Source: a bacterium | GTDB lineage: Bacteria > Hydrothermota > UBA3073 > JACQXS01 > JAGMCI01 | DNA length: 64,000 nucleotides | Direction of reading: 5' to 3' | Assembly: GCA_030018315.1 (NCBI GenBank) | Contig: JASEGA010000001.1 | Coordinates: forward strand, 12,673-76,672 | Part shown: piece by piece, positions 6,572 through 59,840 of the stretch | How positions within the stretch are numbered: the stretch's first letter is position 1 | Layout: the number at the start of each line of letters is the position of its first letter | Translations under genes and position numbers: made by a program | The notes under the pieces: model-generated | Seen by the model: the letters and a program-made list of their open reading frames with translations, nothing else | Database searches by the model: none | Told to the model about the DNA's origin: nothing

Positions 6572-7351
6572 ATGCAGCGATTTATAGGAATTGACCTTGC
6601 ATGGTCATATAGGAACACATCGGGTATTTTTGCGCTTGAATGTAAAGACAATAAAATTTTTCAACTTACCTATAATAACTCTATTAAAAAAGATGATGAA
6701 ATTTTAGATTTTATTCAAGCGAATAAGGGCAAAGGAGGCTGTCTTGTAGCTATTGATGCGCCACTTGTAGTTCCAAATGTTAAAGGTACGAGACCAGTAG
6801 ATATTGAGATTACAAAGAGGTTTCATTCTCAAGAAGCTGGCACTTTACCTGCAAATAGAAATATACTTAAGAATAATAAAGGCGAGGTGCGAGGTGAGGT
6901 ACTTGTAGAGAAATTAGAAAAAATTGGATGTGAGCATAGCTTTGAAATTAAAAAACACGATAGAGGATTTAAGGTATTTGAAGTTTTTCCGCATCCAGCA
7001 ATGGTGGTTATTTTTGATTTATCTACTATTCTTAAATATAAAGCAAAAAAAGGGAGGACACTTAATTTTCGACTTAAAGAGTTAGACCGCTATAAGACTT
7101 ATCTCTCTAATCTTCAAAAATTTGTCCCCCCATTAGCTCAACCTCCACCTTTACAGGATTGTAGGGACACGGCATGCCGTGTTCCTACAAAATGTTACGA
7201 AGATTTGTTAGATGCCCTTTTCTGTGCTTGGCTTGCATCCTATTTCTGGTATTGGGGACCGCAAGGATTTGAAGTAGTTGGTGATATGCAAAATGGATAT
7301 ATTGTGTTGCCCAAAATGGCGGGATTCCCCGCCTGTCATTGCGACCCCTGA
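6572..7351 (+). CDS. DUF429-family protein (RNase H-like fold). The 3' end is altered by inserted repeats.
   Basis: The N-terminus FIGIDLAW is DUF429-like. The ORF contains the 28-bp palindrome at 7161-7188 in frame, and its last codons run into the family-B repeat at about 7325. Confidence 0.5.
   Translation: MQRFIGIDLAWSYRNTSGIFALECKDNKIFQLTYNNSIKKDDEILDFIQANKGKGGCLVAIDAPLVVPNVKGTRPVDIEITKRFHSQEAGTLPANRNILKNNKGEVRGEVLVEKLEKIGCEHSFEIKKHDRGFKVFEVFPHPAMVVIFDLSTILKYKAKKGRTLNFRLKELDRYKTYLSNLQKFVPPLAQPPPLQDCRDTACRVPTKCYEDLLDALFCAWLASYFWYWGPQGFEVVGDMQNGYIVLPKMAGFPACHCDP
7161..7188. repeat. GTAGGGAC...GTTCCTAC 28-bp palindromic element inserted in frame within the DUF429 CDS (one arm mismatch)
   Basis: gtagggacacggcatgccgtgttcctac. 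Encodes CRDTACRVPT in the host frame. Confidence 0.8.
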
Positions 7352-7400
7352 GATTCCTCGCCAGTCATTGCGAGGAGCAAAGCGACGAAGCAATCTCTCA
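7325..7400 (-). repeat. Family-B dispersed repeat (core GATTGCTTCG..CGCAATGAC), reverse orientation, with a partial second copy
   Basis: The reverse complement of 7340-7400 reads gattgcttcgtcgctttgctcctcgcaatgactggcgagg. An additional gtcattgcgac copy lies at 7334-7346. Confidence 0.65.
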
Positions 7401-7473
7401 ACAGGCTCAGAACAAGCTTGAAAAATTTATGATTTTCTTATAAAAACTGTGATATATCCTAATACTAACAATC

Positions 7474-8060
7474 CTATTGATACGATTTTCTCTTCTTCTG
7501 TAAATTACGCTTTAGGACAAGATATACACCTGAATGTGTAACCTTATACCCCTGACTTTGAAAATGTTTTGCAATCCTATTGCACCCGTAATTAGAATGT
7601 TTTGCTTTGTAATTTAGTATTTCAAGTTCTAAGTTTTGGGGGTCCGTCTTGCAACATACTTCGGTGCACGACAAAGCTCAAGTTGACCGTACCAATTTGG
7701 ATAATATTCGTTAATCTGCTTACTTTTGCTTCCACGGATGTATTTATAAGGAGCAATTTCCAGCTTTGATTTAATTTCCCTCCTGTACGGTCTTTTTGCC
7801 CTAAACCATAATGTCCTATTGAGATATTTTAACACCTTATTTAAAGGGTTTGAGTTTATAAATTTCCAGAATCTTTCTTCTTTTTCCTTCCAGTAATAGA
7901 ATTGACGCCGAGTAATGTTAAACTTCCTGCAAGTATCAGCTGCGGTTGCATCTCCAAGTTCGTGCTTCAATAATATAGTTTTCCTTTTTTAGCCTCTTTC
8001 CTAAAATACAACGGAGTACGTTTCTTCATTAGGTAATAAACTACCATATCCAGCATAAAA
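7474..8060 (-). mobile_element. Decayed IS481/IS3-like transposase remnant: HTH N-terminus, frameshifted at an A7G run, truncated before the DDE domain
   Basis: Minus-strand fragments: MKKRTPLYFRKEAKK, then in another frame LKHELGDATAADTCRKFNITRRQFYYWKEKEE (transposase HTH), then YGCNRIAKHFQSQGYKVTHSGVYLVLKRNL (the YGyrRI region that precedes the catalytic core in IS3/IS481 transposases). No DDE core follows. Confidence 0.6.
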
Positions 8061-8267
8061 GTCAAGATAAATTGAACATATGTTTGAAGATAAACTGAGC
8101 TCAAAGTTGCGTAGACTGTTGAATGGGGCTGTAGAGATTTTTCTTTAGAATTAGGCTTAAAACCAGTTTATTATAATATAAGAGAGCCAAATAGTGGGAT
8201 AAAAGTTATTTAGAATAGAGATTTTATTGGGTCATCACTTAACCTATAATTTTAATTAGGAGGGGCA

Positions 8268-9586
8268 ATGCAAAAGTATAAGTCTCAGGGTCAACTTTTG
8301 GATGATTGGGGTGAGTTGTTGAAGTTGAAAAGGGAGTCTTGGCGAATTAAGGATAAGGATAAAGATAAGGCAATGGAATTGGAGTATGAAATAACGAAAA
8401 GAATTAGAGCTTCGTTATTAAAAAATGTAAGTTTTCCAATTCTTGACATATTCCGAAAATATAAACTGAATGTGGATGAGCAATCTTTATTTATAACTAT
8501 ATTAACAAATACAATCACTGGAGACCACCTGTCAACTGTGCGCCAATTTCTCTTAATGCTATATCCTAAGCCCAGCGATGTTATAGATAAAATAAATTAT
8601 CTGTTTCCTTCTGGCAAGTTAATAAAAAACAAGCTTCTCGTCCTCAATGAAGAACGCTTTCCTTTTAGTAGAGATAATAGTACAATCTTAGATGCGTGTG
8701 TTGGTATCCATCCCGATGTGTTACAACAAATTTTGCATTCCCCGAAGCCACGACACAAACAAAATAAAGTGCCCTCTATATTTGAAGTTCGCAAGCCCAA
8801 AATTGATATGTCACATGTAGTCTTAAAGGAGCACCAAAAAGCTGAGCTATTGGAGATAATTAAATATTTAAATAATTACAAGTTAATCTGTAAGACCACG
8901 AATCTGGCTCAAACTTTTGAGAAAGGTAGAGGTTTTATTCTCCTTTTTTCAGGCCCTCCAGGTACTGGTAAAACCTTATCTGCCGAAGCAATAGCAAACG
9001 AGTTAAATAGGAAGTTATATACAATAAATTTTGCCCAACTTGAAAGTAAATGGGTAGGTGATACTCTGAAAAGAATATTAAAGAAGTTTTTAAGACAGTA
9101 AAAACTACTTCTGCTGTTCTCCTTATAGACGAGGCTGACACAATACTTACGAGGCGTGTCTCTGCTGATAGACATACAGATGTGTCTTATAATAGAAATG
9201 TGTTAGTTCTCATGCAAGAAATAGAGAATTTTGAAGGCATCTTAATTCTAACTACAAATCGTGTTGATATACTTGATAATGCACTTGACAGGCGAATTGC
9301 ATTTAAGATAGAATTTGATTTACCGGGTATTGCTGAGAGGGAAAAAATCTGGCAAGTCCTGGTACCTGATAAGGTGGTAATTGACACAGGGGTTGATTTC
9401 TCTGTTCTTGCTAAACGCTTTCCTTTTGCTGGTGGTAACATAAAGAATGCAGTATTTTGGGCAATTATGAAGGCAGGTGAACGCTCACCTACCTCACCAA
9501 TACTTAAAATGGAAGACTTACTAAGTGCAGGTGAAAGAGAATATAGTAAGATGAATAAAAATTCAAAAAGCAGGATAGGATTTTGA
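8268..9586 (+). pseudogene. AAA+ ATPase (classic clade, single AAA domain with about 220-aa unknown N-terminal domain). Frameshift near 9095-9105, between Walker A and Walker B.
   Basis: ORF 8268-9101 ends ...FSGPPGTGKTLSAEAIANELN..KKFLRQ*. The downstream frame continues VLLIDEADTIL...TTNRVDILDNALDRRIAFKIEF (Walker B, sensor, Arg finger). The break is in a T5 run. Confidence 0.65.
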
Positions 9587-9628
9587 TGTTGACAAAATTG
9601 ACCCAATTATTATGGGTAAGGAGGGAGT

Positions 9629-9919
9629 ATGAACAAAGATGAATGGGTAGAAGAGGCAATTAAAATTGCCAAAAGGACTCACTTAAAAATATGGGAGATA
9701 GAAGACTGTGGCAAAGAGGAGGGCAAACTAATAAGATTTGCTTCTCCTGATGACCATGAAAAAGAAGTTGGTGTCTATCTATGGTACAAAAAAGTAGAGT
9801 GCTGGCCAGAGTTTGCGAGGGAGTTGACTCCTTTAGGTTGGGATTGGGCTCCAAAGTCTATTTCACAGCGTTTGAATGATATTAATGCAAGAATTGGCGA
9901 ACTTATGAAGGCAATATAG
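9629..9919 (+). CDS. Hypothetical protein (96 aa), island gene
   Basis: ORF with an AGGAGG-like RBS (ggtaaggaggg) 8 nt upstream. No recognisable domain. Confidence 0.35.
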   Translation: MNKDEWVEEAIKIAKRTHLKIWEIEDCGKEEGKLIRFASPDDHEKEVGVYLWYKKVECWPEFARELTPLGWDWAPKSISQRLNDINARIGELMKAI

Positions 9920-9939
9920 AAAAAGCCACAGGATACAGG

Positions 9940-10233
9940 TTGGATGCAGGATATGATGGATTTGTAAAGGATATAGATACTCCTAAGGAGGCGATTAAAG
10001 AAGTAAAATTGAGAGTGAAGATGAAGACGAAGGGGAGGTATAACAGGGGGCAAGAGATTGAAAAGTTTTTATTAGAAACTTATGGTAGTGTATGTAATGA
10101 GATAAGATGTTATATGGAGGATACCTTTCGAGAACTTTCAGGAGGCCAGTGTGGTTTGGATGAACAGGAGCATGAAGGAGTTGAATTTAGAGTATATCAT
10201 AAAATACCGACAGATTTGAAGAAGAAGATATAA
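9940..10233 (+). CDS. Hypothetical protein (97 aa)
   Basis: ORF only. Confidence 0.3.
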   Translation: MDAGYDGFVKDIDTPKEAIKEVKLRVKMKTKGRYNRGQEIEKFLLETYGSVCNEIRCYMEDTFRELSGGQCGLDEQEHEGVEFRVYHKIPTDLKKKI

Positions 10234-10347
10234 GGAGGAGAGGAAAATAAAAGTAATAGATTTAGATAAAAGTAAAAGTTGACATGTAAGATTTAAGATA
10301 TAGAATTAAACAACAGTTAGTCTTACACTAAATGGCTAAAGGAGGGG

Positions 10348-10806
10348 ATGATGAAATTATTTATTGCGAATGTTGGAGTGAACACAAGTCATGTAAGTAA
10401 AGGTCTCCGGAGTCCGATATTCTCAGATAAGACCTTTGAGTTTATTCCTATTCCAGAGGAAGAAGAAAGGAAAAAAGTCTTATTTTCTCCTCGATACTGT
10501 GAAATTCGGTGTTTCAACAAGCCAAATCTAGCAATTAGCGAGTATTTATGTCCTGAAAGGCGTTCAGATATTGCTCATAATGATCCAGAGTTTAATGATC
10601 CAGAGTTTAATGATCCAGAGTTCAAGTCTTTTACTTATGGTGATATTTTTTCTCCACGAGCCGCTAATCTCAAGGAAATACAACCAGATGACCTTCTTTT
10701 CTTTCTTGCAAGGTTGTGGTTATATAAAGATGGATTTACTAATGAGAGCGATCTTTACTTCATCGGTTACTTCACGGTAGAAAAAAGATTTGCTCCAAAG
10801 ACATAA
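10348..10806 (+). CDS. Hypothetical protein (152 aa). The N-terminus is faintly reminiscent of Nmad3-type nucleotide-modification-associated domains. Contains an NDPEF x3 tandem repeat.
   Basis: RBS aaaggagggg upstream. N-terminus MMKLFIANVGVNTSHVSKGLRSPIF..FEFIPIPEE. The Nmad3 resemblance is from memory only. Confidence 0.4.
   Translation: MMKLFIANVGVNTSHVSKGLRSPIFSDKTFEFIPIPEEEERKKVLFSPRYCEIRCFNKPNLAISEYLCPERRSDIAHNDPEFNDPEFNDPEFKSFTYGDIFSPRAANLKEIQPDDLLFFLARLWLYKDGFTNESDLYFIGYFTVEKRFAPKT
10582..10626 (+). repeat. In-frame 15-bp tandem repeat x3 (gatccagagtttaat) encoding NDPEFNDPEFNDPEF
   Basis: Read directly. The third unit has 2 substitutions. Confidence 0.85.
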
Positions 10807-11517: not shown

Positions 11518-11526
11518 GGAGGTAAT

Positions 11527-14462: not shown

Positions 14463-16313
14463 ATGGCATATTCTATACTAACAATCTTATTAATAGGGAT
14501 TCTGGAAGAAAGTTGGCAGCCTGCATTATTTGATGCTTTAAGTTACATTAAAATGACTCCTCAAGATGTCTATATTACTTCACAACCTTCAGATACATTT
14601 TGCCTTCCATTGGTTCTTGACCTCCTAAAAAGACCTATCCAGTCTCCCAAAGTTGTTGATTCCATCGCTTTAACACTTAAAGATGCTGAACTCAGCGAGC
14701 TTGTAGATATAGCAGGTATATGTATAAATTCTACTTTATCTGATAGTAGTCGAGTTCACTTGGACTCGTTAGCGGCAAAACGAGCTCTACAACTACATAA
14801 GGAGCCACTACAATTTTTGCTTTCCCAAATTACTCTTGCAAATAATTTATTAAAGAGAACGACAGCACAACTTGATTCTTCTGAATTAAACTTCTTAAAA
14901 GAGAATTTACCTAAGATTATACTTGAAGACACTACATTTAAGGACAAAAATCCGTATGAAAAAAAGATTGCAGAGGAAGAAAGTAAAGAAATAGTTAAGA
15001 AATGCCTTAATCTTTTGAAAAAAGTGAATAGAGATGAAATTATGCTATCCGCTTATGTAATTGGAAATGCTATTACACAAACCCTTCCTGGTAGGGACAC
15101 GCCGTGGCGTGTCCCTACAATTAAATATGAAGGAAAGGTTGTAACTCCTGTTGCTACAGGTGATGTTGTCTTTGCTAAGCGTATGGAATATGGATGGATT
15201 GTGATTGGTGGCCCCGGTGAGACTATATATACTGGAGACCCTGCTGTAGTTATTGACCTCGGTGGTGATGATAAATACTATGGTAAAGTAGGAAGTGGGT
15301 CCTCCGGAGTTTCAGTGTGTATTGATTTCTCTGGTAATGACTTATATCTCTCATCTATGGATTACAATTTAGGGTCAGGCTTCTTTGGAGTAGGATTCTT
15401 ATTGGACTTTGAGGGCAATGATATATACTCCTCCGGTAACTTTTCTCATGGCTCCGGATTAGTAGGGGTAGGAATTCTATGGGATACTCAAGGTAATGAC
15501 AAGTATTTTTCTGATACCCATTCTCAAGGAGCAGGCAGTTTTGGGGTAGGAGTTTTGAAAGATTTGAGCGGTAACGATTCTTATCATGGTGCACTTTATG
15601 TACAAGGATTTGGTGGCACTTTCGGGTTTGGTGCTCTCGTGGATTCAGCTGGTAATGATGTTTATTATGCAGGCGGAAAATATAAGGATTGGCTTAGATA
15701 TGAGGACCACTTTTTGTCACTATCTCAAGGTTTTGGTTATGGGATAAGACCTTATGCATCAGGTGGTATTGGAATATTAGCAGATTTTCATGGAAATGAT
15801 TCCTATGTATCAGACATTTTTGGTCAGGGTTGCTCTTATTGGTATGCTTTGGGAGGGCTTATAGATTACGAGGGTAATGATGTGTACAGCTCATACCAAT
15901 ATGCACAAGGGGCAGGTGTCCACATTGGAATTGGTGTTCTTATTGATAAATTTGGGGATGACAGTTATTTTGCAAAAGGTGTATCACAGGGGTGTGGTCA
16001 TGATTATGCGACTGGAATCCTTATAGATGGTGGTGGAAATGACTCCTATTCAGCTTACGATTTATCTCAAGGTGCAGGTAATGCAAATGCTGTCTCAATA
16101 CTTATAGATATAGATGGCAATGATAATTATCTTATAAGAGATAAAGAAACTACACATGGATTTAGTGATTTAAGGCGAGATTTTGGTGGTATTGGAGTGA
16201 TACTCGACCTCGGAGGCAAGGATAAGTATTCAGGATATGGTGATAACAATTCAATATGGGTACACTCAACTTATGGGGTCGGTATAGATAAAGAAATAGA
16301 AAGTTTAAAATGA
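14463..16313 (+). CDS. Repeat protein with about 12 units of a 23-residue GNDxY...QG.G..G.G.L.D motif (FG-GAP-like / beta-propeller or beta-helix-like) after a 230-aa N-terminal domain
   Basis: Repeat units: GGDDKYYG, SGNDLYL, EGNDIYSS, QGNDKYFS, SGNDSYHG, AGNDVYYAG, HGNDSYVSD, EGNDVYSSY, FGDDSYFAKG, GGNDSYSAY, DGNDNYLI, GGKDKYSGYG. Contains the 28-bp palindrome in frame at 15091-15118. Confidence 0.55.
   Translation: MAYSILTILLIGILEESWQPALFDALSYIKMTPQDVYITSQPSDTFCLPLVLDLLKRPIQSPKVVDSIALTLKDAELSELVDIAGICINSTLSDSSRVHLDSLAAKRALQLHKEPLQFLLSQITLANNLLKRTTAQLDSSELNFLKENLPKIILEDTTFKDKNPYEKKIAEEESKEIVKKCLNLLKKVNRDEIMLSAYVIGNAITQTLPGRDTPWRVPTIKYEGKVVTPVATGDVVFAKRMEYGWIVIGGPGETIYTGDPAVVIDLGGDDKYYGKVGSGSSGVSVCIDFSGNDLYLSSMDYNLGSGFFGVGFLLDFEGNDIYSSGNFSHGSGLVGVGILWDTQGNDKYFSDTHSQGAGSFGVGVLKDLSGNDSYHGALYVQGFGGTFGFGALVDSAGNDVYYAGGKYKDWLRYEDHFLSLSQGFGYGIRPYASGGIGILADFHGNDSYVSDIFGQGCSYWYALGGLIDYEGNDVYSSYQYAQGAGVHIGIGVLIDKFGDDSYFAKGVSQGCGHDYATGILIDGGGNDSYSAYDLSQGAGNANAVSILIDIDGNDNYLIRDKETTHGFSDLRRDFGGIGVILDLGGKDKYSGYGDNNSIWVHSTYGVGIDKEIESLK
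15091..15118. repeat. GTAGGGACACGCC-gt-GGCGTGTCCCTAC 28-bp palindromic element, in frame (encodes GRDTPWRVPT)
   Basis: Read directly: 13-bp perfect arms and a 2-nt centre. Confidence 0.85.
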
Positions 16314-17763: not shown

Positions 17764-18409
17764 TTATATTCTGTTATTTAGAATTTCTTTTATTTTAGAT
17801 GCTTTCTTTTTACCAATTAATGGAACTTTGGCAAGTTCCTCTTGAGATGCAAGTAAAATTTCTGAAAGACTTTTATATCTTGTGAGTAGTTCGTGAGTTA
17901 ACTTTGGGCCAATACCAGGAAAGGCTTCAAGTATTCTTTCAAGTTCTTTCTTTAGAGTTAGAGCTTTGGGTTTTGGATAAATTGAGATTTCTGGTCTTAT
18001 AAGTTGTTCTTGTTTAGCAATTGTGAACAGGAATTTAGCTGTATCAGTAGTATTCATAGTGAAAAGGATTGGCATCCTGTGATTCACTGCTATCATTGAG
18101 AGCGCTCCCCTTATTCCTGCTGGATAAACTCCTTTTACTTTGTATAGATTGTAGCCTTCAATAAGTAGTAATGGACGCTCAAATGCATCTTTCAGGTCTA
18201 CAATTTACCTAAATAGCCTCTTAGTCTTAATTGAGCTAACAAAGTCAAATGCGGTCTTTCGTTCCACACATACTCTATCAGAAAGCAGGTAGTCACCTAT
18301 TTGCATAGATTGCTGAATAACATTTATTCCTTTAGCTATTAAGATATCTATAATCCCTGATGTCTTTTTCCCTAACATCAGCATAAATTGTAATAACTTT
18401 GGATTTCAT
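17764..18409 (-). pseudogene. ERCC4/XPF-Hef-type nuclease with C-terminal HhH2 domain, disrupted by a +1 frameshift (near 18355) and an internal TAA (about 18203)
   Basis: Three minus-strand fragments: MKSKVITIYADVREKD; then SGIIDILIAKGINVIQQSMQIGDYLLSDRVCVERKTAFDFVSSIKTKRLFR*IVDLKDAFERPLLLIEGY (ERCC4 GDY..ERK motifs); then MIAVNHRMPILFT..AKQEQ..HhH. Confidence 0.6.
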
Positions 18410-22978: not shown

Positions 22979-24190
22979 TTGATATTTGATTTTATTATGG
23001 TGAGACTGCTTGATATTAAGACTGCTAATGAAGCGTCTCGTGAAATCAAGGATATAGGTGCGGATTTAGAGAGTATACCAATTTTAAGCCCAAAATTTGA
23101 ACATATAGTAATTAAAATTGAAAAAGTTAACGGGCCTGCCTGTAATATTTTGAAGCAAGAAGCTCTATCAATTGGGGCAGATTGTGCTATCCCGCGTGCT
23201 GCAATACTTGGAGTCCAAACTCCTATGGAAGCAATCGTAGTTGGTAATCTTAAACAAATCAATATGCTTGCTAATAAGCTAAAAAGTCAGCCTTTTGGGT
23301 TACAAGAAATAGGAAGTGAAATAGAAGCCATTATTAATAAGCGGAATCCGTTTATTCTTAGACTTCGGTTTCATAAACTTGACCTATCCCATCCCCTTAT
23401 TTGTGGCATCTTAAATATAACACCGGATTCATTTTATGATGGCGGCAAGTGGCTTAACCCTTCCTGTGCAGTTGATAGAGCCCATAAACTATTAGAAGAA
23501 GGTGCAGACCTCATCGATATTGGAGGTGAATCAACAAGACCGGGTGCAGAGCCTCTGTCTGCTAAAGATGAGTTACATAGAGTTATTCCTGTACTTGAGC
23601 GTTTAAATCTACCAATTCCAATCTCAATTGATACTTACAAGTCTTGTGTAGCAAAAGAAGCTCTTGATGCGGGTTGTGAGCTTGTTAACGATGTCTCTGG
23701 TTTACGATACGATTCAGAGATGCCAAAAGTGATAGTAGACTACGATGCAGGCTGTGTAATTATGCATATGAAAGGTACCCCAAAGACTATGCAGATAAAT
23801 CCTATTTATGATAATAATGATGTTATAGGTGAGATAATACAGTTCTTAAGTGAAAGTATAGAGATTGCTAAGAAATCGGGTATAAATGATGACTCACTCC
23901 TTATAGACCCTGGTATTGGATTTGGTAAGCGTAACCCAGAAGATAACTTACTTATTCTACGTAAACTCAGTGAATTCAAGACTCTTAGAAAGCCAATTCT
24001 TGTAGGTGTATCAAGGAAATCATTTATTGGAAAAGTCCTTGATGTACCACTTGATGATAGATTAGAGGGGTCTCTTGCAGCATCGGTTATAGCAGTGATG
24101 AACGGTGCAAATATCATACGGACACATGATGTACTTGCCACAAAGAGAGCTGTGAAAATGGCAGATGCCATCTTAGGTTGTGAATGCTAA
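22979..24190 (+). CDS. folP: Dihydropteroate synthase with about 130-aa N-terminal extension
   Basis: ICGILNITPDSFYDGG and the downstream Pterin_bind motifs. The N-terminal 130 aa has no recognised motif. Confidence 0.85.
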   Translation: MIFDFIMVRLLDIKTANEASREIKDIGADLESIPILSPKFEHIVIKIEKVNGPACNILKQEALSIGADCAIPRAAILGVQTPMEAIVVGNLKQINMLANKLKSQPFGLQEIGSEIEAIINKRNPFILRLRFHKLDLSHPLICGILNITPDSFYDGGKWLNPSCAVDRAHKLLEEGADLIDIGGESTRPGAEPLSAKDELHRVIPVLERLNLPIPISIDTYKSCVAKEALDAGCELVNDVSGLRYDSEMPKVIVDYDAGCVIMHMKGTPKTMQINPIYDNNDVIGEIIQFLSESIEIAKKSGINDDSLLIDPGIGFGKRNPEDNLLILRKLSEFKTLRKPILVGVSRKSFIGKVLDVPLDDRLEGSLAASVIAVMNGANIIRTHDVLATKRAVKMADAILGCEC

Positions 24191-24200
24191 ATTCTAAATT

Positions 24201-24599
24201 ATGAGTGCTAAATTGGAGAAAAACATAATTAAAGAGAAAGTATATAAATTTGCTTTGCATGTTATTAATATTAAATTTGTAAATTCCTTGCCCAAAAACA
24301 TGGCAATCCCCATTCTTGGTGGACAACTTCTTCATGCAAGTACTTCTGTGGGAGCAAATGTAGAAGAGGCATTGGGTGCGGATAGCAAGAAGGACTTTTC
24401 TTATAAAATGAGCATTTAAAATGAGCATTGCTAAAAGAGAAGCGCGTGAGAGCAAGTATTGGCTTGAGTTGATAACTGACTCAAAATTAGCAAAAAGAGA
24501 TAATGACTTAATTAGGGAAGCAAGCGAGTTAGTGAGTATCTTACCGAGTATTGTTAAGACTTCGCAAAGGAACACAGAACATCGAGCTAGGGGTAACTA
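24201..24599 (+). pseudogene. Four-helix-bundle protein (23S rRNA intervening-sequence protein family) disrupted by a 13-bp tandem duplication (24405-24430)
   Basis: ..YKFALHVINI..LPKNMAIPILGGQLLHASTSVGANVEEALGADSKKDFSYKMSI*, then in the +1 frame MSIAKREARESKYWLELITDSKL... The sequence aaaatgagcattt is directly repeated. Confidence 0.6.
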
Positions 24600-24626
24600 A
24601 TTTAGCATTTAGAATTAAGAATTTTT

Positions 24627-28955: not shown

Positions 28956-29349
28956 TGAAGAAATTATCTCTCAAATTGGGAGTGGGTTTTTAATCCTTAT
29001 TGGAGTAGAAAAGGGTGACAAGCCTCAATCTGCTAAATACTTGGCTCATAAATGTGCTAATTTACGTATCTTTGAAGATTCATATGGAAAAATGAACCTC
29101 TCTCTAAAGGAGATAAAAGGGGGTGAGGTTCTTGTAATTTCTCAATTTACTTTATGTGCTGACTGTAAAAAGGGATTAAGACCAAGTTTTGATTATGCTT
29201 CTTCTCCAGATCAAGCAATCGCCCTTTATAAAAAGTTTATAGAATTCCTTCGTTCTGAAGGCGTTACAGTTAAAGAGGGTGTGTTCGGTGAGAGAATGTC
29301 TATCTCACTTATAAACGAGGGTCCGGTTACCTTTATTTTATCAACATAA
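28909..29349 (+). CDS. dtd: D-aminoacyl-tRNA deacylase
   Basis: MRVVVQRVKRASCEI..GFLILIGVEKGD..SQFTL..GPVTF matches Dtd throughout. Confidence 0.85.
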   Translation: MRVVVQRVKRASCEINEEIISQIGSGFLILIGVEKGDKPQSAKYLAHKCANLRIFEDSYGKMNLSLKEIKGGEVLVISQFTLCADCKKGLRPSFDYASSPDQAIALYKKFIEFLRSEGVTVKEGVFGERMSISLINEGPVTFILST

Positions 29350-29351
29350 AT

Positions 29352-29388
29352 TGTAGATTGCTTTGCTGTCGCTCGCAATGACAGAGGG
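29352..29388 (+). repeat. Family-B dispersed repeat (tgtagattgctttgctgtcgctcgcaatgacag) immediately 3' of dtd
   Basis: Read directly. Near-identical to the copy at 30231. Confidence 0.75.
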
Positions 29389-29394
29389 AGGGCA

Positions 29395-30216
29395 ATGATC
29401 CAGTCTATGACTGGCTATGGGGAGGCTACCTATAGCCACATTCATTGTGAGCTAAAGGCTCTAAATCATAGATTTTTTGATGCAACTCTCAGCATTCCTA
29501 CAAGTCTCTCTTGTTATGAATTTAAAATAATAACTTTATTAAAAGAGCGTATCAAAAGGGGGGCAGTCTTTTTAAAAATTTTTGTAGAGGAGACTCATAT
29601 TAAGCTTGACATTAAACGAGCTAAGGCGTATTATGATTTTATTAATAATTTAAAACTCTCTCTTGGGTTAGAGGAGAGCTCTATCCCAATTGACCTTTTT
29701 CTCAATTTTACAAAACAAGAAGCTCCTCCGTGGAGTGTAGTTAAAAAGGTTATAAACTCTTGTATTGACTGTTTAATTGAGTCAAGATTAGAGGAGGGTA
29801 AGAAATTGTTGTCAGATATTGAAACACATTTTAAAAAGATAAATAAATTGCTTCAAGTAATCGATCAGCGTGTCCCAAAACAAAAAGAGAGAAGGGAACA
29901 GTTTCTGAAAAGGATAACTCCTCTTATAAAAGATGGACTTGATGAGCACAAAATTGACGAAGAGTTTGCTTTCTTACTTATGAAAGAGGATTTCAACGAA
30001 GAGCAATCAAGATTAAAAGCCCATTTTAAGAAGTTCAAAAACATACTGTATAGTAAGAGACCTTCTGGCAAATATCTTGTGTTTCTCATTCAGGAGATGC
30101 AACGTGAGGCAAACACTATTTCTGCTAAAGTCAAGGATGTTGGTGTTTCTCAAGTTGTAGTAGAACTCAAAAAAGAACTTGAAGACTTAAGAGAGCAGGC
30201 TGAAAATGTATCATAG
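29395..30216 (+). CDS. yicC: YicC-family stress-induced protein
   Basis: MIQSMTGYGEA N-terminus and a DUF1732 C-terminus. Confidence 0.75.
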   Translation: MIQSMTGYGEATYSHIHCELKALNHRFFDATLSIPTSLSCYEFKIITLLKERIKRGAVFLKIFVEETHIKLDIKRAKAYYDFINNLKLSLGLEESSIPIDLFLNFTKQEAPPWSVVKKVINSCIDCLIESRLEEGKKLLSDIETHFKKINKLLQVIDQRVPKQKERREQFLKRITPLIKDGLDEHKIDEEFAFLLMKEDFNEEQSRLKAHFKKFKNILYSKRPSGKYLVFLIQEMQREANTISAKVKDVGVSQVVVELKKELEDLREQAENVS

Positions 30217-30230
30217 ATTTAGACTGAATG

Positions 30231-30266
30231 TAGATTGCTTTGCTGTCGCTCGCAATGACAGTGGGG
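30231..30266 (+). repeat. Family-B dispersed repeat immediately 3' of yicC
   Basis: atgtagattgctttgctgtcgctcgcaatgacagtgggg. Confidence 0.75.
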
Positions 30267-30330
30267 TAACTTATTTCGTTTTGGGCAACCACAATACCTG
30301 CCCCTACAATCAGTTCACATTAATGATAAA

Positions 30331-30942
30331 ATGTTAGGTAAAGTTACCCCATTTCCAATAGTTCTTACTGCACCCTCAGGCACAGGAAAGACAACGATAT
30401 GCAGGTGTATACTTAAAAAGAGTCCTCAAATTAGATATTCTATATCTGCTACTACTCGCAAGCCGAGGGATGGTGAAGTTGACAAGAAGGACTACTATTT
30501 TATTTCTAAGTCTACATTTAAGGATTGGATAAAAAGGGGCAAATTTTATGAGTGGGCTCAAGTTTACGGTGACCTTTACGGCACTCCAAAAGAGCCATTG
30601 CTCCAATATTTAAATACTGGTCATCATGTGCTGCTTACTTTAGATATTCAAGGTGCAAGAAGCATAAAGATGGCCTATCCGCTGTCAGTTTGTATTTTTA
30701 TTTTGCCACCCTCTATATCCGAACTTAAAGTGAGATTACTTAAGCGTGATAAGGATTCGTTCAAAGTAATTGGTGAGAGATTAAAAGCAGCTACAGCAGA
30801 ATTACATTACGCAAGTGAATTTGATTATGTTGTTGTAAATGAAAGTCTTGGGACAACAGTGAACAAGATTATGGCAATAATAGTAGCAGAGGAATGTAGC
30901 TTTAAGAGATTATATGAAAAAGCAGAAAAAAGACAAAAATAA
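30331..30942 (+). CDS. gmk: Guanylate kinase
   Basis: P-loop SGTGKTT and the GMP-binding motifs. Confidence 0.85.
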   Translation: MLGKVTPFPIVLTAPSGTGKTTICRCILKKSPQIRYSISATTRKPRDGEVDKKDYYFISKSTFKDWIKRGKFYEWAQVYGDLYGTPKEPLLQYLNTGHHVLLTLDIQGARSIKMAYPLSVCIFILPPSISELKVRLLKRDKDSFKVIGERLKAATAELHYASEFDYVVVNESLGTTVNKIMAIIVAEECSFKRLYEKAEKRQK

Positions 30943-31159: not shown

Positions 31160-32297
31160 TATAGCAGCTTATAAAGCATTAGAAATTGTGCGTTTATTTA
31201 AGAAAAAGGGTGAAGATATATTCTGTGTATTAACTCGGGAGGCAACAAAGTTTGTCTCCCCTCTTTCATTTTATACGCTTTCTGGCAACGAAGTTATATT
31301 TGATTTTTTTGAGTTAAAGAGGACACCAGTCCATGTTGAGCTTGCAACTCTTGATGCTATACTTGTTGCTCCTGCAACTTATAACTTAATAGGTAAAGTA
31401 GCGTCAGGAATAGCTGATGATGCGCTCTCCTGTATAATTGCTGATACTCGGTCACCTGTCATTTTTGCGCCATGCATGGATACAGGGATGTGGGAAAATT
31501 CAATACTTCAAGATAATATAAAGAAATTGAAATCACTTGGCTACCACTTTATAGAGCCAGTTATTGGTGAACTTTCTACCTTACAGATTGGGAAAGGTAG
31601 GTTTCCAACTCCTGAATTCATTGTAGAAGAGACTTATCGTATTCTTTACTCATCTAATGAACTGAATGGCAAGAAGATTCTTGTAACAGCAGGTAGGACA
31701 GAAGAAGACATTGACCCTGTGAGATGTATAACTAATAGGTCATCTGGTATAATGGGATATGCACTTGCATATGAGGCAAGGAGGCGGGGCGGCGATGTCA
31801 CCCTTATTTCAGGTCCATCAAGTAGGGACACGCCATGGCGTGTCCCTACATCTGGGGTGAAACTTGTAAATGTGAGAACTACTAATGAACTTGAGTTAGA
31901 GGTTTTATCACGAGCCTCTGCTTCTGACATACTTATAATGGCGGCTGCAGTCGCAGATTATACACCTGTTCAACAATTTGATAAAAAAGTGAAAAATGAG
32001 TATATGGATATAAAATTAAAGCGGACGCACGATATTCTCAAGCTTGTAAGGAAGAAGAATAAGGGGCTATTTATTATTGGCTTTTCTTTAGAAACCGATG
32101 AGCATATAAAATGGGCAAAAACTAAGCTTAGAGATAAAGCTCTCAATCTCATAGTTTCTAATGATGTAGCTTCAATTGGCTCAAATGAGGCTCGAGTTAG
32201 TCTTATCAATTGCAATTTAAAAATAAAAAAATTGCCACTACTTCCAAAGTCTGAAGTTGCAAAGAAGATAATTGATTATGTGGTAGCCAGTATTTGA
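31116..32297 (+). CDS. coaBC: Bifunctional phosphopantothenoylcysteine decarboxylase / phosphopantothenate-cysteine ligase. Carries an in-frame palindromic element insert.
   Basis: Flavoprotein N-terminus KIVLGVTGSIAAYKA and a DFP C-terminal domain. The insert SRDTPWRVPTS lies at 31822-31849. Confidence 0.9.
   Translation: MRQEMKKIVLGVTGSIAAYKALEIVRLFKKKGEDIFCVLTREATKFVSPLSFYTLSGNEVIFDFFELKRTPVHVELATLDAILVAPATYNLIGKVASGIADDALSCIIADTRSPVIFAPCMDTGMWENSILQDNIKKLKSLGYHFIEPVIGELSTLQIGKGRFPTPEFIVEETYRILYSSNELNGKKILVTAGRTEEDIDPVRCITNRSSGIMGYALAYEARRRGGDVTLISGPSSRDTPWRVPTSGVKLVNVRTTNELELEVLSRASASDILIMAAAVADYTPVQQFDKKVKNEYMDIKLKRTHDILKLVRKKNKGLFIIGFSLETDEHIKWAKTKLRDKALNLIVSNDVASIGSNEARVSLINCNLKIKKLPLLPKSEVAKKIIDYVVASI
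31822..31849. repeat. Perfect 28-bp palindrome GTAGGGACACGCCATGGCGTGTCCCTAC inserted in frame in coaBC
   Basis: Read directly; the centre is CCATGG. Confidence 0.9.
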
Positions 32298-50800: not shown

Positions 50801-50817
50801 ATCTTAATCACCTTTGC

Positions 50818-56090: not shown

Positions 56091-56100
56091 TTTAAAGAGT

Positions 56101-56183
56101 AAAATTATGAATTATAAATGCTGAATGCTAAATTAAGAAATTCATAATTGAGCATTAAGAATTTAGCATTTCTAAAGTGAAGA
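56101..56183 (+). repeat. 83-bp interleaved-inverted-repeat element (copy 1) forming the leader and GTG-AAG start of tpiA
   Basis: aaaattatgaattataaatgctgaatgctaaattaagaaattcataattgagcattaagaatttagcatttctaaaGTGaag. Interleaved inverted repeats: aattatgaatt/aattcataatt and aatgctaaatt/aatttagcatt. Confidence 0.8.
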
Positions 56184-56965
56184 GGCGTTATCTAATTGCA
56201 GGAAATTGGAAGATGAACAAAACAATTGGAGAAGCAGTAGAGTTAGCAACTAAAATAAAAACTGGACTCACCGAGATAGACGATATAGATATAGCCATAT
56301 TCCCACCATTTACTGCTCTATATCCTGTTTATGAAGTAATAAAGGAGTCAAATATTAATTTAGGGGCTCAAAATTTATGGTACGAATCTAATGGTGCCTA
56401 TACAGGTGAGATTTCACCTATCTTCATTGTAGATGTAGGCTGTAAGTATGTGATTATAGGACATTCAGAGCGTAGACAATACTGTGGTGAAACAGCTGAA
56501 CTTGTAAACCGTAAGCTTAAGACAGCACTCAAATATGGACTTATCTCCATTGTTTGTATAGGTGAAACAATAGAAGAAAGAGAGAATGGAAAAACATACG
56601 AATTAGTTGAGCGTGAATTCAATGTTGCATTTGATGGCCTTCTACCGGGGACAGTCCCCATACGGGGACAGTCCCCTTTTCTACCTATAACTATAGCTTA
56701 TGAGCCAATCTGGGCAATTGGAACTGGGTTTACAGCAACTCCTAAAATTGCAGAAGAAGTGCATAAGTTTATAAGGAAATTGGTGGAAACTAAATATGGT
56801 TACAAAGTAGCAGAAGAGTTTCGCATCCTTTATGGTGGTAGTGTGAACTCTGAAACCATATCTGGACTCCTCCGTGAGCCTGACATAGATGGCGTCCTTG
56901 TAGGAGGGGCGAGTTTGGATGCAAAATCATTCATAGAAATAGTTAAGAAAGCAAACAGTATATGA
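56177..56965 (+). CDS. tpiA: Triosephosphate isomerase with a 13-residue in-frame insertion near the active-site Glu
   Basis: AGNWKMN and AYEPIWAIGTG. GTG start. The insertion at 56647-56685 encodes GTVPIRGQSPFLP. Confidence 0.9.
   Translation: MKRRYLIAGNWKMNKTIGEAVELATKIKTGLTEIDDIDIAIFPPFTALYPVYEVIKESNINLGAQNLWYESNGAYTGEISPIFIVDVGCKYVIIGHSERRQYCGETAELVNRKLKTALKYGLISIVCIGETIEERENGKTYELVEREFNVAFDGLLPGTVPIRGQSPFLPITIAYEPIWAIGTGFTATPKIAEEVHKFIRKLVETKYGYKVAEEFRILYGGSVNSETISGLLREPDIDGVLVGGASLDAKSFIEIVKKANSI
56642..56685 (+). repeat. 39-bp insertion: 2 x GGGGACAGTCCCC palindromic units plus 5-bp direct repeat CTACC (target-site-duplication-like), inside tpiA
   Basis: CTACCggggacagtccccatacggggacagtccccttttCTACC. 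Removing 39 bp restores ..DGLLPITIAYEPIW. Confidence 0.75.
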
Positions 56966-57047
56966 AAATTATGAATTATAAATGCTGAATGCTAAATTAA
57001 GAAATTCATAATTGAGCATTAAGAATTTAGCATTTCTAATGTGAAGA
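56965..57047 (+). repeat. 83-bp element copy 2 (1 mismatch from copy 1) forming the leader and GTG-AAG start of pdxA
   Basis: Same sequence as 56101-56183 except A-to-T 3 nt before the GTG. It begins at the tpiA stop codon. Confidence 0.8.
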
Positions 57048-58015
57048 TTGGTATAACAATAGGCGACCCATCTGGGATTGGACCTGAGGTAACACTAAAA
57101 GCTTTACAATCTCTTAAAACCATAAATGAGGTGCGACCTCAAGAGGTGCAACCTCAAGCTGTTGTAATAGGAGCCCAGTCTATAATTGATGAGACAATAG
57201 AAAGATTTGGCATTCAATGGGATGGCGAAGTAATAAATTGTAGCGAGCTCAAAAGAGTGGATGTAGGCTATGGGAAGCTATCAGCGTTAGCTGGTAGGGC
57301 AGCTTATAGTTTTATTTTAAAAGGATACGAGCTTATAAACGATAAAAAAATTGACGCCTTAGTGACAGCTCCAATTTGTAAAGCTTCGCTAAATCTTGCC
57401 GGTTTTAACTTTCCAGGTCATACTGAGTTGCTTGCAAATCTATCAAATACAAAACGGTTTGCAATGATGCTTTGTGGTGATGAAATTAGAGTAACACTTG
57501 TGACAACACATATTCAACTTAAAAGAGTTCCTGAGGTACTAACAAAAGAGCAAATTGTTGAAAAAATAGAACTAACATATGAGTTTTTGAGTACCCGTTT
57601 TAACATCCATTCACCCAAAATTGGCATTTGTGCTTTAAATCCACATGGGGGTGAGGGTATTTTTGGTAACGAAGAAGCTCTAATAATAAAACCAGCAATA
57701 GATGATGCAAAGAAAAAAGGAATTCTTGTTGATGGTCCCTATGCAGCAGATACTTTATTTACACGTACTGATTTTGATGCAATAATAGCTATGTATCATG
57801 ACCAAGGTTTAATTCCTATTAAACTCAAGGAATTTGGTCATGCAGTAAATGTGACTATAGGACTACCTTTTGTTCGTACATCTCCAGACCATGGTACAGC
57901 TTTTGATATAGCAGGAAAAGGGATAGCAAATCCTGAGAGTATGATTCGGGCAATAAAGCTGGCAGTCCGGCTGGCTCAACTGAAGCCAGAAAGATTAGCT
58001 GAGGGTAGGACATAA
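57041..58015 (+). CDS. pdxA: 4-hydroxythreonine-4-phosphate dehydrogenase
   Basis: KIGITIGDPSGIGPEV and the PdxA metal-site motifs. GTG start. Contains an in-frame 15-bp tandem duplication at 57128-57157. Confidence 0.85.
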   Translation: MKIGITIGDPSGIGPEVTLKALQSLKTINEVRPQEVQPQAVVIGAQSIIDETIERFGIQWDGEVINCSELKRVDVGYGKLSALAGRAAYSFILKGYELINDKKIDALVTAPICKASLNLAGFNFPGHTELLANLSNTKRFAMMLCGDEIRVTLVTTHIQLKRVPEVLTKEQIVEKIELTYEFLSTRFNIHSPKIGICALNPHGGEGIFGNEEALIIKPAIDDAKKKGILVDGPYAADTLFTRTDFDAIIAMYHDQGLIPIKLKEFGHAVNVTIGLPFVRTSPDHGTAFDIAGKGIANPESMIRAIKLAVRLAQLKPERLAEGRT

Positions 58016-58026
58016 TTCAATTTCTT

Positions 58027-58851
58027 ATGGATGAGTTAAAAGAGATTGCAAAAGATGTAAGAAAGGATATAATTAAGATGCTTACTAAAGCGGGCTCAGG
58101 CCACCCCGGGGGTTCGCTTTCCTGTGTTGAGATTCTAGTCACTCTTTATTTTAAAGTGCTGCGTCATAATCAAGCAAATCCTAAATGGGAGGATAGGGAC
58201 AGATTCGTCCTCTCCAAAGGTCATGCGGCACCCACCCTTTACGCTGTTCTTTCGAGAGTTGGCTATTTTCCGCGTGACTGGCTGTGGGAGTTAAGGAAGT
58301 GTGGTGCAAGGCTACAAGGCCATCCTTACTCATTATCTACCCCAGGAGTAGAGGCATCAACAGGGTCACTTGGCCAAGGGTTATCAATTGCAAATGGGAT
58401 AGCATTAGCTGGTAAGATTGACAAGAAAGATTACCGTGTATATGTGCTCATTGGGGATGGTGAAATTGACGAAGGTGAAATATGGGAGGCAAGTCTAACT
58501 GCGTCCAGGTTTAAACTTGATAACCTTTGTGCTATACTTGACCACAATAGATTTCAGATAGATGGCTCAATAAAGGAAATAAAAGACCCTTATCCATTAA
58601 AAGAAAAGTGGCAATCATTTGGGTGGGAAGTCTTTGAGGTAGATGGTCATAATTTTAATGCGCTCCCGGATGTATTTTCTAATGCAAAGCATATAAAAGG
58701 GAAACCAACAATAATAATTGCAAATACTATAAAGGGAAAGGGAGTCTCATTTATGGAGAATGCTATAGAGTGGCATGGCAAGGCGCCAAATGAAGTGGAA
58801 GCAAAAAAGGCGATTGAGGAGATAGAGAGGGGTGAGTCCTCAAATGGATGA
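58027..58851 (+). CDS. Transketolase, N-terminal (TPP-binding) subunit
   Basis: GSGHPGGSLS and GDGE..EG motifs. Split-type transketolase. Confidence 0.85.
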   Translation: MDELKEIAKDVRKDIIKMLTKAGSGHPGGSLSCVEILVTLYFKVLRHNQANPKWEDRDRFVLSKGHAAPTLYAVLSRVGYFPRDWLWELRKCGARLQGHPYSLSTPGVEASTGSLGQGLSIANGIALAGKIDKKDYRVYVLIGDGEIDEGEIWEASLTASRFKLDNLCAILDHNRFQIDGSIKEIKDPYPLKEKWQSFGWEVFEVDGHNFNALPDVFSNAKHIKGKPTIIIANTIKGKGVSFMENAIEWHGKAPNEVEAKKAIEEIERGESSNG

Positions 58852-59776
58852 CCTTATTTCACTCAGGGAAGCTTATGGTGAAACACTGATAGAACTCGGT
58901 AAAGTTAATCCAAACATTATAGTATTGGATGCAGACCTATCGTTTTCTACAAAGACCCATTTGTTTAAAGATGCCTTTCCTGATAGATTTTTTGACCTCG
59001 GCATTTCAGAGGCTGATATGATGGGTACAGCGGCTGGTTTAGCTTCTTGTGGCAAGACAGTTTTTGTATCCACTTTTGCAGTGTTTGCAACTGGTAGAGC
59101 ATGGGACCAGATAAGATTAGGGATTGCTTATCAAAAACTACCAGTTAAAATAGTTGCCTCCCATGGTGGGATTGGGATTGGTGAAGACGGGTACTCACAT
59201 CAAGCTGTCGAAGATATAGCTCTCATGAGAGTTCTACCCAGTATGAGAGTGATAGTTCCCTGTGACGTAGTTCAGACACGTGCAGTTATCCGATTAGTAG
59301 CTAATGAAGAAGGTCCATTTTATGTCAGGCTTGTAAAACAGAGGTTGCCAATAATTTATAAATATGGCTGTAATTTTGAACTTGGCAAATCCATAACACT
59401 GAGAGCTGGTAATGACATTACTATCGGAGCTATAGGCTCTTTGGTGTATGAAGCATTACAATCATACGAAATTTTAAAATCAAATAAAATAGAGGCAAGG
59501 GTAATTGACTTTGCATCAGTTAAGCCAATAGATAAAGAGGCAATAAAAAGGGCTTGTGATGAAACACAAGGTATTATAACCTGTGAAGACCATACAGTAA
59601 TAGGTGGACTTGGCGATGCAGTAGCTGAAGTAATTTTATCCTATCGACCGATTCCTCATAGGAGAGTTGGGATTCAAGATATTTATGGAGAATCTGGTTC
59701 AACTAAAGATTTATATGAAAAATACGGCTTAAGTTCACACCATATAGTAGAGAAAGCAATGGAGTTGTTGAAATGA
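58832..59776 (+). CDS. Transketolase, C-terminal (pyrimidine-binding) subunit
   Basis: Follows the N-terminal subunit with a 20-nt overlap. Typical Pyr and C-terminal domains. Confidence 0.85.
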   Translation: MSPQMDDLISLREAYGETLIELGKVNPNIIVLDADLSFSTKTHLFKDAFPDRFFDLGISEADMMGTAAGLASCGKTVFVSTFAVFATGRAWDQIRLGIAYQKLPVKIVASHGGIGIGEDGYSHQAVEDIALMRVLPSMRVIVPCDVVQTRAVIRLVANEEGPFYVRLVKQRLPIIYKYGCNFELGKSITLRAGNDITIGAIGSLVYEALQSYEILKSNKIEARVIDFASVKPIDKEAIKRACDETQGIITCEDHTVIGGLGDAVAEVILSYRPIPHRRVGIQDIYGESGSTKDLYEKYGLSSHHIVEKAMELLK

Positions 59777-59787
59777 CAGTAGTATGT

Positions 59788-59840
59788 GTATAGATTGCTT
59801 CGCTATCGCTCGCAATGACAGTGGGTAGGTTCACAATGAC
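59788..59840 (+). repeat. Family-B dispersed repeat immediately 3' of the transketolase C subunit, with an extra caatgacag half-copy
   Basis: gtatagattgcttcgctatcgctcgcaatgacagtgggtaggttcacaatgacagc. Confidence 0.75.

Follow-up and report, generated by a model that had tools for sequence, protein, structure and literature searches.

In the REP/BIME and REPIN–RAYT systems of Enterobacteria and Pseudomonas, short palindromes carry a GTAG tag, a Y1 HUH transposase recognizes the single-stranded DNA (ssDNA) hairpin, and the repeat families are lineage specific and vertically inherited. A second group, the CGTC-tagged REP superfamily, has an unpaired CGTC or TGTC (also CCTC) tag, a continuous stem of 8–9 bp that begins with the pairs A–T and T–A, a loop of 4–5 nt and a 3-nt tail with the consensus CCA (Di Nocera, De Gregorio and Rocco, BMC Genomics 2013; PMC3733652). 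These repeats mostly form tags-outward dimers and lie between unidirectional or convergent open reading frames (ORFs) near the upstream stop codon, with occasional copies inside ORFs and no associated transposase; the superfamily includes dRS3 of Neisseria and RPE-4/6 of Rickettsia (PMC3733652). The present work concerns a family of short hairpin repeats at four sites in 64,000 nucleotides of a Hydrothermota genome (assembly GCA_030018315.1, contig JASEGA010000001.1, positions 12,673 to 76,672), a stretch called the window throughout.

In Neisseria, a hairpin of this kind is paired with an enzyme. The NTS sequence (CGTCATTCCCGCGMAVGCGGGAATCYRG) is bound and cut only as ssDNA and on one strand, and not as RNA or double-stranded DNA (Chenal et al., Nat Commun 2025; PMC11893778). 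The enzyme, SsnA, is a single-domain GIY-YIG protein of 94 aa with the catalytic residues Y6, Y17 and E64; cleavage depends on the three bases before the NTS palindrome, and binding on the C that follows it (PMC11893778). Homologs of ssnA across bacteria are bracketed by such hairpins, the Ssn-related motifs (SRMs), and in the published survey no homolog of SsnA was present in 19% of the genomes that contained more than 200 SRMs (PMC11893778).

The window sites are likely to be orphan copies of a hairpin DNA element that belongs to the CGTC/TGTC-tagged REP superfamily and represents the kind seen in the NTS/dRS3 Ssn-related motifs. By analogy with NTS, the repeats are probably an ssDNA recognition site and not a signal at mRNA 3' ends. 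This kind of element has already been published; the present family extends that knowledge by its architecture, its invisibility to the published search pattern, its spread over environmental and candidate-phylum bacteria and phage contigs, and a base-perfect 29-mer.

Architecture and covariation of the hairpin

On the strand that carries the tag (the YGTC strand), the element reads 5'-Y GTC / ATTGC / GAG / variable hairpin / CG(A/T)(A/G) / GCAAT / C Y C-3'. A loose pattern (AGATTGC, 10–25 nt, CTCGCAATGAC) was found in at least 120 stretches of IMG/VR, and the 172 copies in 120 stretches among the matches listed share two constant end blocks around a middle that is variable yet always self-complementary. 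Among the 42 distinct variants with a 32-nt core, six of the seven pairs of the inner helix are altered on both sides, with 73 double-change cells vs 25.5 ± 3.7 in shuffles and 11–27 in slid controls. Pairing in this variable helix is almost solely Watson–Crick, with G–U in 3 of ~240 paired cells. The outer helix ATTGC/GCAAT (5 bp) is invariant within the family, and sibling families swap it (ATTCT/AGAAT, ACTGC/GCAGT, ATTCC/GGAAT, ATCCT/AGGAT and others) while retaining the unpaired GTC and GAG and the 3' C. Both helices are real: the inner one co-varies within the family and the outer one between sibling families.

Almost no variation is seen in the unpaired GTC, GAG and CG or in the C that follows the palindrome, and the variable part ranges widely, the inner helix from 2 to 9 bp or more and the inner hairpin from 3 to 40 nt. 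Loops of the UUCG/GNRA type, an early hint of an RNA element, were discarded as a clue; the loops are mixed, and the common ones are GNA/GNNA on the opposite strand. Many loci contain half copies or the tag-proximal half repeated in tandem. Arrays of whole or half copies are found at 1300–1500 of L335 (Gloeotrichia echinulata chromosome CP170511.1) and in L106, L178, L165 and L264, with examples such as four head-to-tail cGTCATTGCGAGGCACGAAGCAATCCC copies upstream of a nuclease gene and runs of ...gggctcgcaatgacaa half copies. Such tandem arrays suggest local amplification from the tag end.

A partner gene for a small GIY-YIG nuclease

The family is physically coupled to a gene for a single-domain GIY-YIG nuclease of ~95 aa, which typically lies between two tags-outward copies. 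In the loci selected by the element, a motif scan with a 55-aa floor followed by tblastn yielded six small GIY-YIG genes (L088, L136, L140, L189, L197 and L238). Each of them has hairpin copies no more than 45 nt away, usually one on either side, and Pfam GIY-YIG was confirmed in the four proteins scanned (E 3e-11 to 9e-18). The coupling also holds in a reciprocal sample of 80 metagenome loci picked solely by similarity to the ~95-aa GIY-YIG proteins: in 73 of the 80 a copy lies no farther than 120 nt from the gene, upstream in 52 of 70, downstream in 65 of 73 and on both sides in 52, and copy density is 9.65/kb near the gene vs 0.77/kb farther away. Upstream copies usually present the YGTC strand (38 of 52), and downstream copies its complement (48 of 65). 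Of the seven loci that appeared negative, most hold long-insert or sibling variants outside the search pattern, and the same gene–hairpin arrangement recurs in L327 and L335, which were fetched by exact protein.

In the protein-selected loci, counted solely on copies anchored by ATTGC-GAG...GCAAT, the three bases upstream of the palindrome are G in 234, T in 235 and C in 233 of 240 copies (97–98% each). Position −4 in these loci is T in 71% and C in 23%, and the 3' tail is C (99%), T/C (97%) and C (83%). Partner proteins are 95–104 aa long, with Y8, Y19 and E66 giving a Tyr–Tyr–Glu spacing of 11 and 58 residues, and their nearest solved structure is a UPF0213 protein (E = 2e-7). The clade is very large (at least 8000 clusters at 90% identity), and its members bear the source names 'GIY-YIG nuclease family protein' or 'putative endonuclease'; one of the partner proteins (P0126) is from Ca. 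Kuenenia. Where it can be checked, the nuclease gene appears to be single copy; the 24 contigs of P0207 represent one locus in many samples. The protein is absent from PADLOC, and its PHROG search gave only a marginal match of unknown function. The first-pass annotation of the window had raised the idea that the repeats are protein-binding sites, an idea supported by the tight family-wide linkage to the nuclease gene.

By analogy with SsnA and NTS, the YGTC strand would fold when the DNA is single-stranded, as in replication, repair, transformation, conjugation or phage DNA, and the nuclease would bind the hairpin and the 3' C and cut a few bases 5' of the GTC tag. One outcome could be the restriction or trimming of incoming element-bearing ssDNA, as in Neisseria transformation; in another, the nick could be the step by which new sites acquire a copy of the element, on the lines suggested for REP/RAYT. 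Effects on the dtd–yicC–gmk or transketolase transcripts would then be a by-product.

The arrangement of the copies bears on two other kinds of mobile element. The 567 copies in 240 loci comprise 246 singletons, 110 tags-outward dimers (HH), 33 tags-inward dimers (TT) and 33 tandem dimers (HT). When 100 inverted pairs were searched for target-site duplications of 2–9 bp at four boundary offsets, only chance-level matches were found. A classical REP/REPIN mobilized by a RAYT transposase (Y1, IS200/IS605-type) would likewise be a short, imperfect, extragenic palindrome with inverted doublets and no target-site duplication, and a GTAG-headed palindrome family does co-exist with the present one in the window. 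The tag here is YGTC, however, not GTAG, and the recurrent neighbor is a GIY-YIG protein; no recurrent Y1 transposase appears among the ORFs that flank the 240 loci, and Di Nocera et al. likewise found CGTC repeats to be associated with no transposase (PMC3733652). All-against-all clustering of 1853 flanking ORFs of at least 90 aa from these 240 loci returned phage structural proteins only and no Y1 transposase cluster; that set kept the longest non-overlapping ORFs and so dropped most of the small partner ORFs, which is why the partner was missed there. Mobilization by a RAYT enzyme is accordingly very improbable.

A miniature inverted-repeat transposable element (MITE) derived from an insertion sequence with a DDE transposase, with terminal inverted repeats beginning TGTCATTGCGAG, is an even more remote prospect. 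Tags-outward pairs do resemble two terminal inverted repeats around a spacer, with ends TG...CA, and transposase fragments lie near two of the window copies. These resemblances are outweighed by the lack of a target-site duplication at any boundary offset in the 100 pairs, by the 246 of 567 copies that are singletons, by the fact that each arm is itself a co-varying hairpin, and by the absence of a DDE gene between the arms in the loci examined. The proximity of transposase fragment and hairpin seen in the window has no counterpart in the other loci.

Copies in the window and their placement

The core CGCTCGCAATGACAG has nine matches with at most three mismatches in the window, vs 0.54 expected, and none of 100 shuffles reaches nine; the core matches at 18090, 19562 and 32532 are at chance level and lie outside the family. 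A covariance model trained solely on unrelated (foreign) family members and then run on the window returned exactly four full copies, at 31–37 bits, the next match reaching 11 bits (E = 0.5). Inspection of the sequence bears out the four repeat sites of the first-pass annotation, with the extra half-copy after the gene for the transketolase C-terminal subunit (Table 1).

Table 1. Copies of the hairpin family and other repeats and features in the window (positions in window coordinates)
Feature	Position	Strand	Score	Context
Full copy 1, TAGATTGCTTTGCTGTCGCTCGCAATGACA	29354–29383	+	31.0 bits, E 4e-7	45-nt dtd–yicC spacer
Full copy 2	30231–30260	+	31.0 bits	15 nt past yicC stop
Full copy 3, TAGATTGCTTCGCTATCGCTCGCAATGACA	59791–59820	+	36.1 bits	15 nt past transketolase C-terminal subunit stop
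Half copy, GGTTCACAATGACAG	59828–59842	+		tag-proximal half alone; 3 mismatches to core
Full copy 4, GAGATTGCTTCGTCGCTTTGCTCCTCGCAATGACT	7363–7397	−	36.6 bits, E 8e-9	common 33-nt class
Half copy, GGGTCGCAATGACAG	7333–7347	−		overlaps end of DUF429 ORF (6572–7351)
Transposase fragment, HTH_28-type N-terminal piece	7474–7970	−		spread over two ORFs
Transposase fragment, DDE_Tnp_1	61105–61305	+		66 aa
GTAG-headed palindrome, GTAGGGACACGCC(G/A)TGGCGTGTCCCTAC	7161–7189			family copies 86–97% identical
GTAG-headed palindrome	15091–15119			
GTAG-headed palindrome	31822–31850			
Possible GTAG-family remnant, cctgcccctacaa	near 30298–30310			just past copy 2
AT-rich direct repeat, 83 nt	56101–56183			99% identical to next row; the two bracket ORF 56177–56965
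AT-rich direct repeat, 83 nt	56965–57047			
Shorter AATGCTAAATT/TTAGCATTT relative of 83-nt repeat	24183–24214	both orientations occur		
Shorter AATGCTAAATT/TTAGCATTT relative of 83-nt repeat	24594–24624			
ORF, AAA+ ATPase half	8268–9101	+		GPPGTGKT Walker A
ORF, AAA+ ATPase half	9182–9586	+		sensor/arginine-finger region
Periodic repeats, ~117–130 nt, degenerate	61988–62630			63–78% identical; overlap ORF 61825–62583 (−) and run ~50 nt beyond

Copies 1 and 2 have identical 27-nt cores, copy 3 is an exact match to the 29-mer found across phyla, and the core of copy 4 is identical to that of the viral locus L007. Both half copies retain only the TCRCAATGACAG end. The half copy on the minus strand supplies the final codons of the DUF429 ORF, so that the repeat does replace the last codons of that gene, as the first-pass annotation had it. 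The YGTC strand, presumed to be the active one, is minus for copies 1–3 and plus for copy 4; its tags are CTGTC in three copies and CAGTC in one. GC content of the window is about 36% (35–38%).

The first-pass annotation had also placed the copies just past stop codons, in the orientation of transcription. The first part stands: the four copies lie 5, 15, 15 and 77 nt after upstream stops. Copy 1, which follows dtd, ends 11 nt before the yicC ATG; copy 3 occupies the spacer between the convergent genes for the transketolase C-terminal subunit and a PhoU_div/DUF47 protein, as assigned from ORFs and Pfam; and the stop upstream of copy 4 is that of a minus-strand ORF for a transposase fragment. 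Proximity to stop codons extends to the whole family and to both orientations, with a median distance of 26–28 nt to the upstream stop vs 42–69 nt to the next start. Outside the window, intergenic copies number 173 between co-directional, 57 between convergent and 29 between divergent genes, so that convergent spacers are used about twice as much as divergent (promoter) ones, which are under-used. The second part is no family rule, as singletons between co-directional genes are 31 sense vs 40 antisense (p = 0.34). That four of four window copies are co-oriented is unremarkable, because 40 of the 52 long ORFs of the window are on the plus strand and because such an outcome has a chance of 1/16 under random orientation. 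The first-pass annotation had taken random orientation and random position with respect to genes together as speaking against its reading; checked across the family, orientation is random and position is non-random.

E. coli REPs stabilize upstream mRNA, and a REP-like element acting as RNA, whose transcribed hairpin would block 3' exonucleases, terminate weakly or bind an RNA-binding protein, would suit the four window copies, which lie past stops and are co-oriented with the upstream gene. It would also suit the family's position nearer the upstream stop than the next start and its rarity in divergent spacers. At copy 2, the repeat and its flank fold at −11.8 kcal/mol, and a scan of 29200–30450 for a terminator consensus gave one weak terminator-like match at 30235–30269 with the T-rich tail CTTATTTCGT; the lack of a U-tract asserted by the first-pass annotation holds for copies 1 and 3. 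The repeats do not fit an intrinsic terminator, in which a GC-rich hairpin in sense orientation runs straight into a U-tract. Orientation is random across the family, and clustered copies are for the most part arranged as inverted pairs. Shuffled sequences fold as well as the window copies do, either as RNA or as DNA (z −1.4 to +1.6); as RNA, the strand opposite to that of the first-pass annotation folds better in 222 of 230 variants. No Rfam family was found in the whole window at the gathering threshold, nor for two copies at permissive E-values. Because of this lack of an Rfam match, the shuffle-like folding, the Watson–Crick pairs, the transcription-independent orientation and the more stable opposite strand, an element acting at the DNA level is favored. 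The invariant unpaired bases match the determinants of an ssDNA nuclease, SsnA, which does not bind RNA, and the covariation, which is almost only Watson–Crick, together with the lack of a transcription-orientation bias, lends indirect sequence-based support to action on ssDNA. An RNA-level element is therefore unlikely, as is the stabilization of mRNA 3' ends proposed in the first-pass annotation, whose comparison with REPs is borne out in another sense, by the anatomy of the CGTC/TGTC-tagged superfamily. Resemblances to a sigma-54 promoter, attC, dif, CRISPR and ribozymes were also considered and rejected, since the copies show neither the consensus nor the arrangement that defines these elements.

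The window copies are absent from the same spacers in relatives, which is insertion polymorphism at deep divergence. Window YicC is 56–65% identical to its nearest relatives, one of which is named candidate division WOR-3. The WOR-3 relatives (L242, L244 and L246) share the DJ-1/dtd/yicC/gmk/coaBC synteny; their yicC and gmk genes overlap, with no spacer, and their dtd–yicC spacers hold no copy of the hairpin family of the window. The window copies are therefore lineage-specific insertions. One of these relatives has, at 1620–1650 of L246, a sibling element with the swapped outer helix ACCCT/AGGGT (CTGTCACCCTGAGTGGAGCGAAGGGTC on the opposite strand), in the same dtd–yicC spacer and in the same orientation as window copy 1.

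Several points weigh against the identification of the window sites with an ssDNA-recognized element of the SRM kind. Neither tblastn nor profile hidden Markov models (best match E = 0.41) found a GIY-YIG gene in the 64-kb window; the four copies are therefore orphans and may be inert. The 29-nt variant in the window has only an AT-rich outer stem of 5 bp and an inner stem of 2 bp, and its fold is weak even for DNA (−4 kcal/mol). Gene calls for the placement counts were crude longest-ORF calls, and many copies fell inside possibly spurious ORFs. No Neisseria protein is among the best 120 of at least 8000 partner homologs. The published SRM string HGTCWYN(0-2)YYVSBRHN(0-5)WNVSBRGN(0-2)RNCYNB, which does recover NTS as a positive control, fits 0 of 920 copies and has no match in the window; the discrepancy is at the YY positions of the stem, which are TG here, and the family therefore escaped the published survey. 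Lastly, cleavage, the choice of strand and a role in mobility are attributed to the element by analogy.

The first of these points leads to a reading that is possible but not favored, in which the copies are inert relics in a host that lost or never had the cognate nuclease and merely occupy spacers and break assemblies. It agrees with the small number of copies (four in 64 kb), present as singletons or with half copies and of the minimal, weakly folding variant, with the degenerate state of the cluster at 7325–7400, and with the 19% of SRM-rich genomes (more than 200 SRMs) that have no SsnA homolog in the published survey (PMC11893778). The identical 27-nt cores of copies 1 and 2 and the exact 29-mer of copy 3 point, by contrast, to recent origin or continued constraint in a genome of 36% GC, and 64 kb is a small part of the genome.

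An independent assembly of the region with the same genes (L001, Logan contig SRR23186779_6897) breaks off within the repeat cluster, ~40 nt after the stop codon of DUF429, and contigs of only 0.5–2 kb carry many of the partner-nuclease homologs. The hairpins seem to break short-read assemblies. For the annotation of the window, the repeats account for the odd C-terminus of the DUF429 protein and for an assembly break, and as DNA elements they would have no regulatory RNA role for dtd, yicC or transketolase.

The window holds other repeats (Table 1). The GTAG-headed palindromes look, from their sequence, like classical GTAG-tagged REPs of the RAYT-linked kind. The 83-nt AT-rich direct repeats make up a third dispersed family. 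Two adjacent ORFs resemble the two halves of one AAA+ ATPase, which suggests a frameshift or stop within the gene. The periodic repeats at 61988–62630 overlap an ORF and so probably encode a protein domain in several copies, rather than being a DNA element.

Distribution of the family and comparison with known systems

The exact 29-mer, with two degenerate positions, occurs in at least 120 stretches of GTDB representatives (one genome per species) and is identical in at least 18 bacterial phyla; the family is also found in phage contigs. By record titles, the hosts of the 29-mer are Stahlbacteria, Alpha- and Gammaproteobacteria, Planctomycetota (Brocadiaceae, Scalinduaceae), Chloroflexota, Cyanobacteriota including Melainabacteria, Patescibacteria (Saccharibacteria, Uhrbacteria, Parcubacteria), Bacillota, Bacteroidota including Ignavibacteriaceae, Spirochaetota, Desulfobacterota, Nitrospirota, Omnitrophota, Zixibacteria, Latescibacterota, Dadabacteria, Schekmanbacteria, Aminicenantes and Armatimonadota. 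Cultured isolates among the matches listed are Epilithonimonas pallida DSM 18015 and Dapis sp. BLCC M229. Complete genomes rich in copies include Zixibacteria CP070839.1, Gloeotrichia CP170511.1 and E. pallida DSM 18015. Since ~1e-4 chance matches are expected in 596 Gb, the 29-mer is one conserved element, and neither a lineage-specific repeat nor an assembly artefact. A full-text literature search for core sequence strings returned unrelated primers only, and the supplements of Di Nocera 2013 and Chenal 2025 contain no matching sequence.

Three host groups have the 29-mer nested in longer, lineage-specific repeat units. In cyanobacteria (L152, L183, L185, L195, L218 and L221) it lies inside the inverted repeat caggacttacgca...tgcgtaagtcctg; in Brocadiaceae and other Planctomycetota (L126, L128, L135, L151, L187, L192, L205, L206, L232 and L237) it is flanked by gagagaaa and gcaagacaagactttttgcacagactcttta, flanks that were reported for Brocadiaceae; and in a third group, mostly Desulfobacterales (L147, L157, L166, L169, L173, L176, L211, L225, L228 and L233), it is followed by gaatggtaacgattttcaaatagc..ttgcgaaattcgggat. 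Among the element-bearing IMG/VR stretches, 29 of 120 (L014 and 28 others) share a major-capsid-like cluster and other structural genes, and one phage group thus seems especially rich in hairpins. The viral locus L088 also carries a GIY-YIG gene.

Base identity of the 29-nt variant over at least 18 phyla, even in a window of ~36% GC, implies either a very strong recognition constraint or frequent horizontal spread. It is conceivable, though doubtful, that the ATTGCGAG hairpin and the ~95-aa GIY-YIG nuclease make up a self-propagating, horizontally spreading, transposition-like unit that seeded phage genomes and at least 18 phyla, Patescibacteria among them, with identical hairpins. Phages might serve as vehicles, or the hairpins might be ssDNA marks of self and non-self in phage–host conflict. 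If the unit were self-propagating, a GIY-YIG ssDNA nuclease would drive a transposition-like system in place of a Y1 or DDE enzyme. For those who seek site-specific ssDNA nucleases, the nuclease and its hairpin are a candidate enzyme/site pair.

The family shares with REP/REPIN–RAYT systems its short extragenic palindromes, inverted doublets, lack of a target-site duplication, single-copy enzyme gene bracketed by repeats and presumed recognition of an ssDNA hairpin by the enzyme, and differs from them in the YGTC tag, the GIY-YIG nuclease and the identity of sequence across phyla. It has in common with the CGTC-tagged REPs the tag, the first two stem pairs (A–T and T–A), a 3-nt tail, a predominance of tags-outward dimers, the position relative to ORFs, the occasional copy inside an ORF and the lack of a recurrent transposase (PMC3733652). 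Where they have a continuous stem of 8–9 bp and a loop of 4–5 nt, the present family has a 5-bp stem that leads through an internal loop into a second helix of variable sequence; its tail is mostly CTC (or CCC), with CCA mainly in alphaproteobacterial loci. One of the published variants, for example Bradyrhizobium CGTC-1 with 'loops of different length', may be the same family (PMC3733652).

The likeness to SRMs (NTS/dRS3) and SsnA extends to the enzyme. Both systems have a directional hairpin in which the palindrome begins with AT, is preceded directly by an unpaired (C/T)GTC and is followed directly by a conserved C, hundreds of extragenic copies, and a repeat–gene–repeat arrangement around a single-domain GIY-YIG gene of ~94–95 aa. 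The invariant GTC and 3' C are the cleavage and binding determinants of SsnA, and the Tyr/Tyr/Glu spacing is identical and the protein length similar, the likeness of the proteins resting on length, spacing and Pfam domain. The systems differ in the palindrome, which is ATTGC...GCAAT here and ATTCCC...GGGAAT in NTS/dRS3, and in the purine-rich internal loop of 3 × 4 nt (GAG / CGAA) and the freely variable inner hairpin found here. Hosts here are mainly environmental (anammox Planctomycetota, Chloroflexota, Cyanobacteria, Desulfobacterota, Patescibacteria, WOR-3 and others), together with phage contigs, in contrast to the symbionts and pathogens of the SRM–SsnA system. The family would thus extend the pairing of Ssn nuclease and hairpin to an architecture that the published pattern misses and to far-off hosts.

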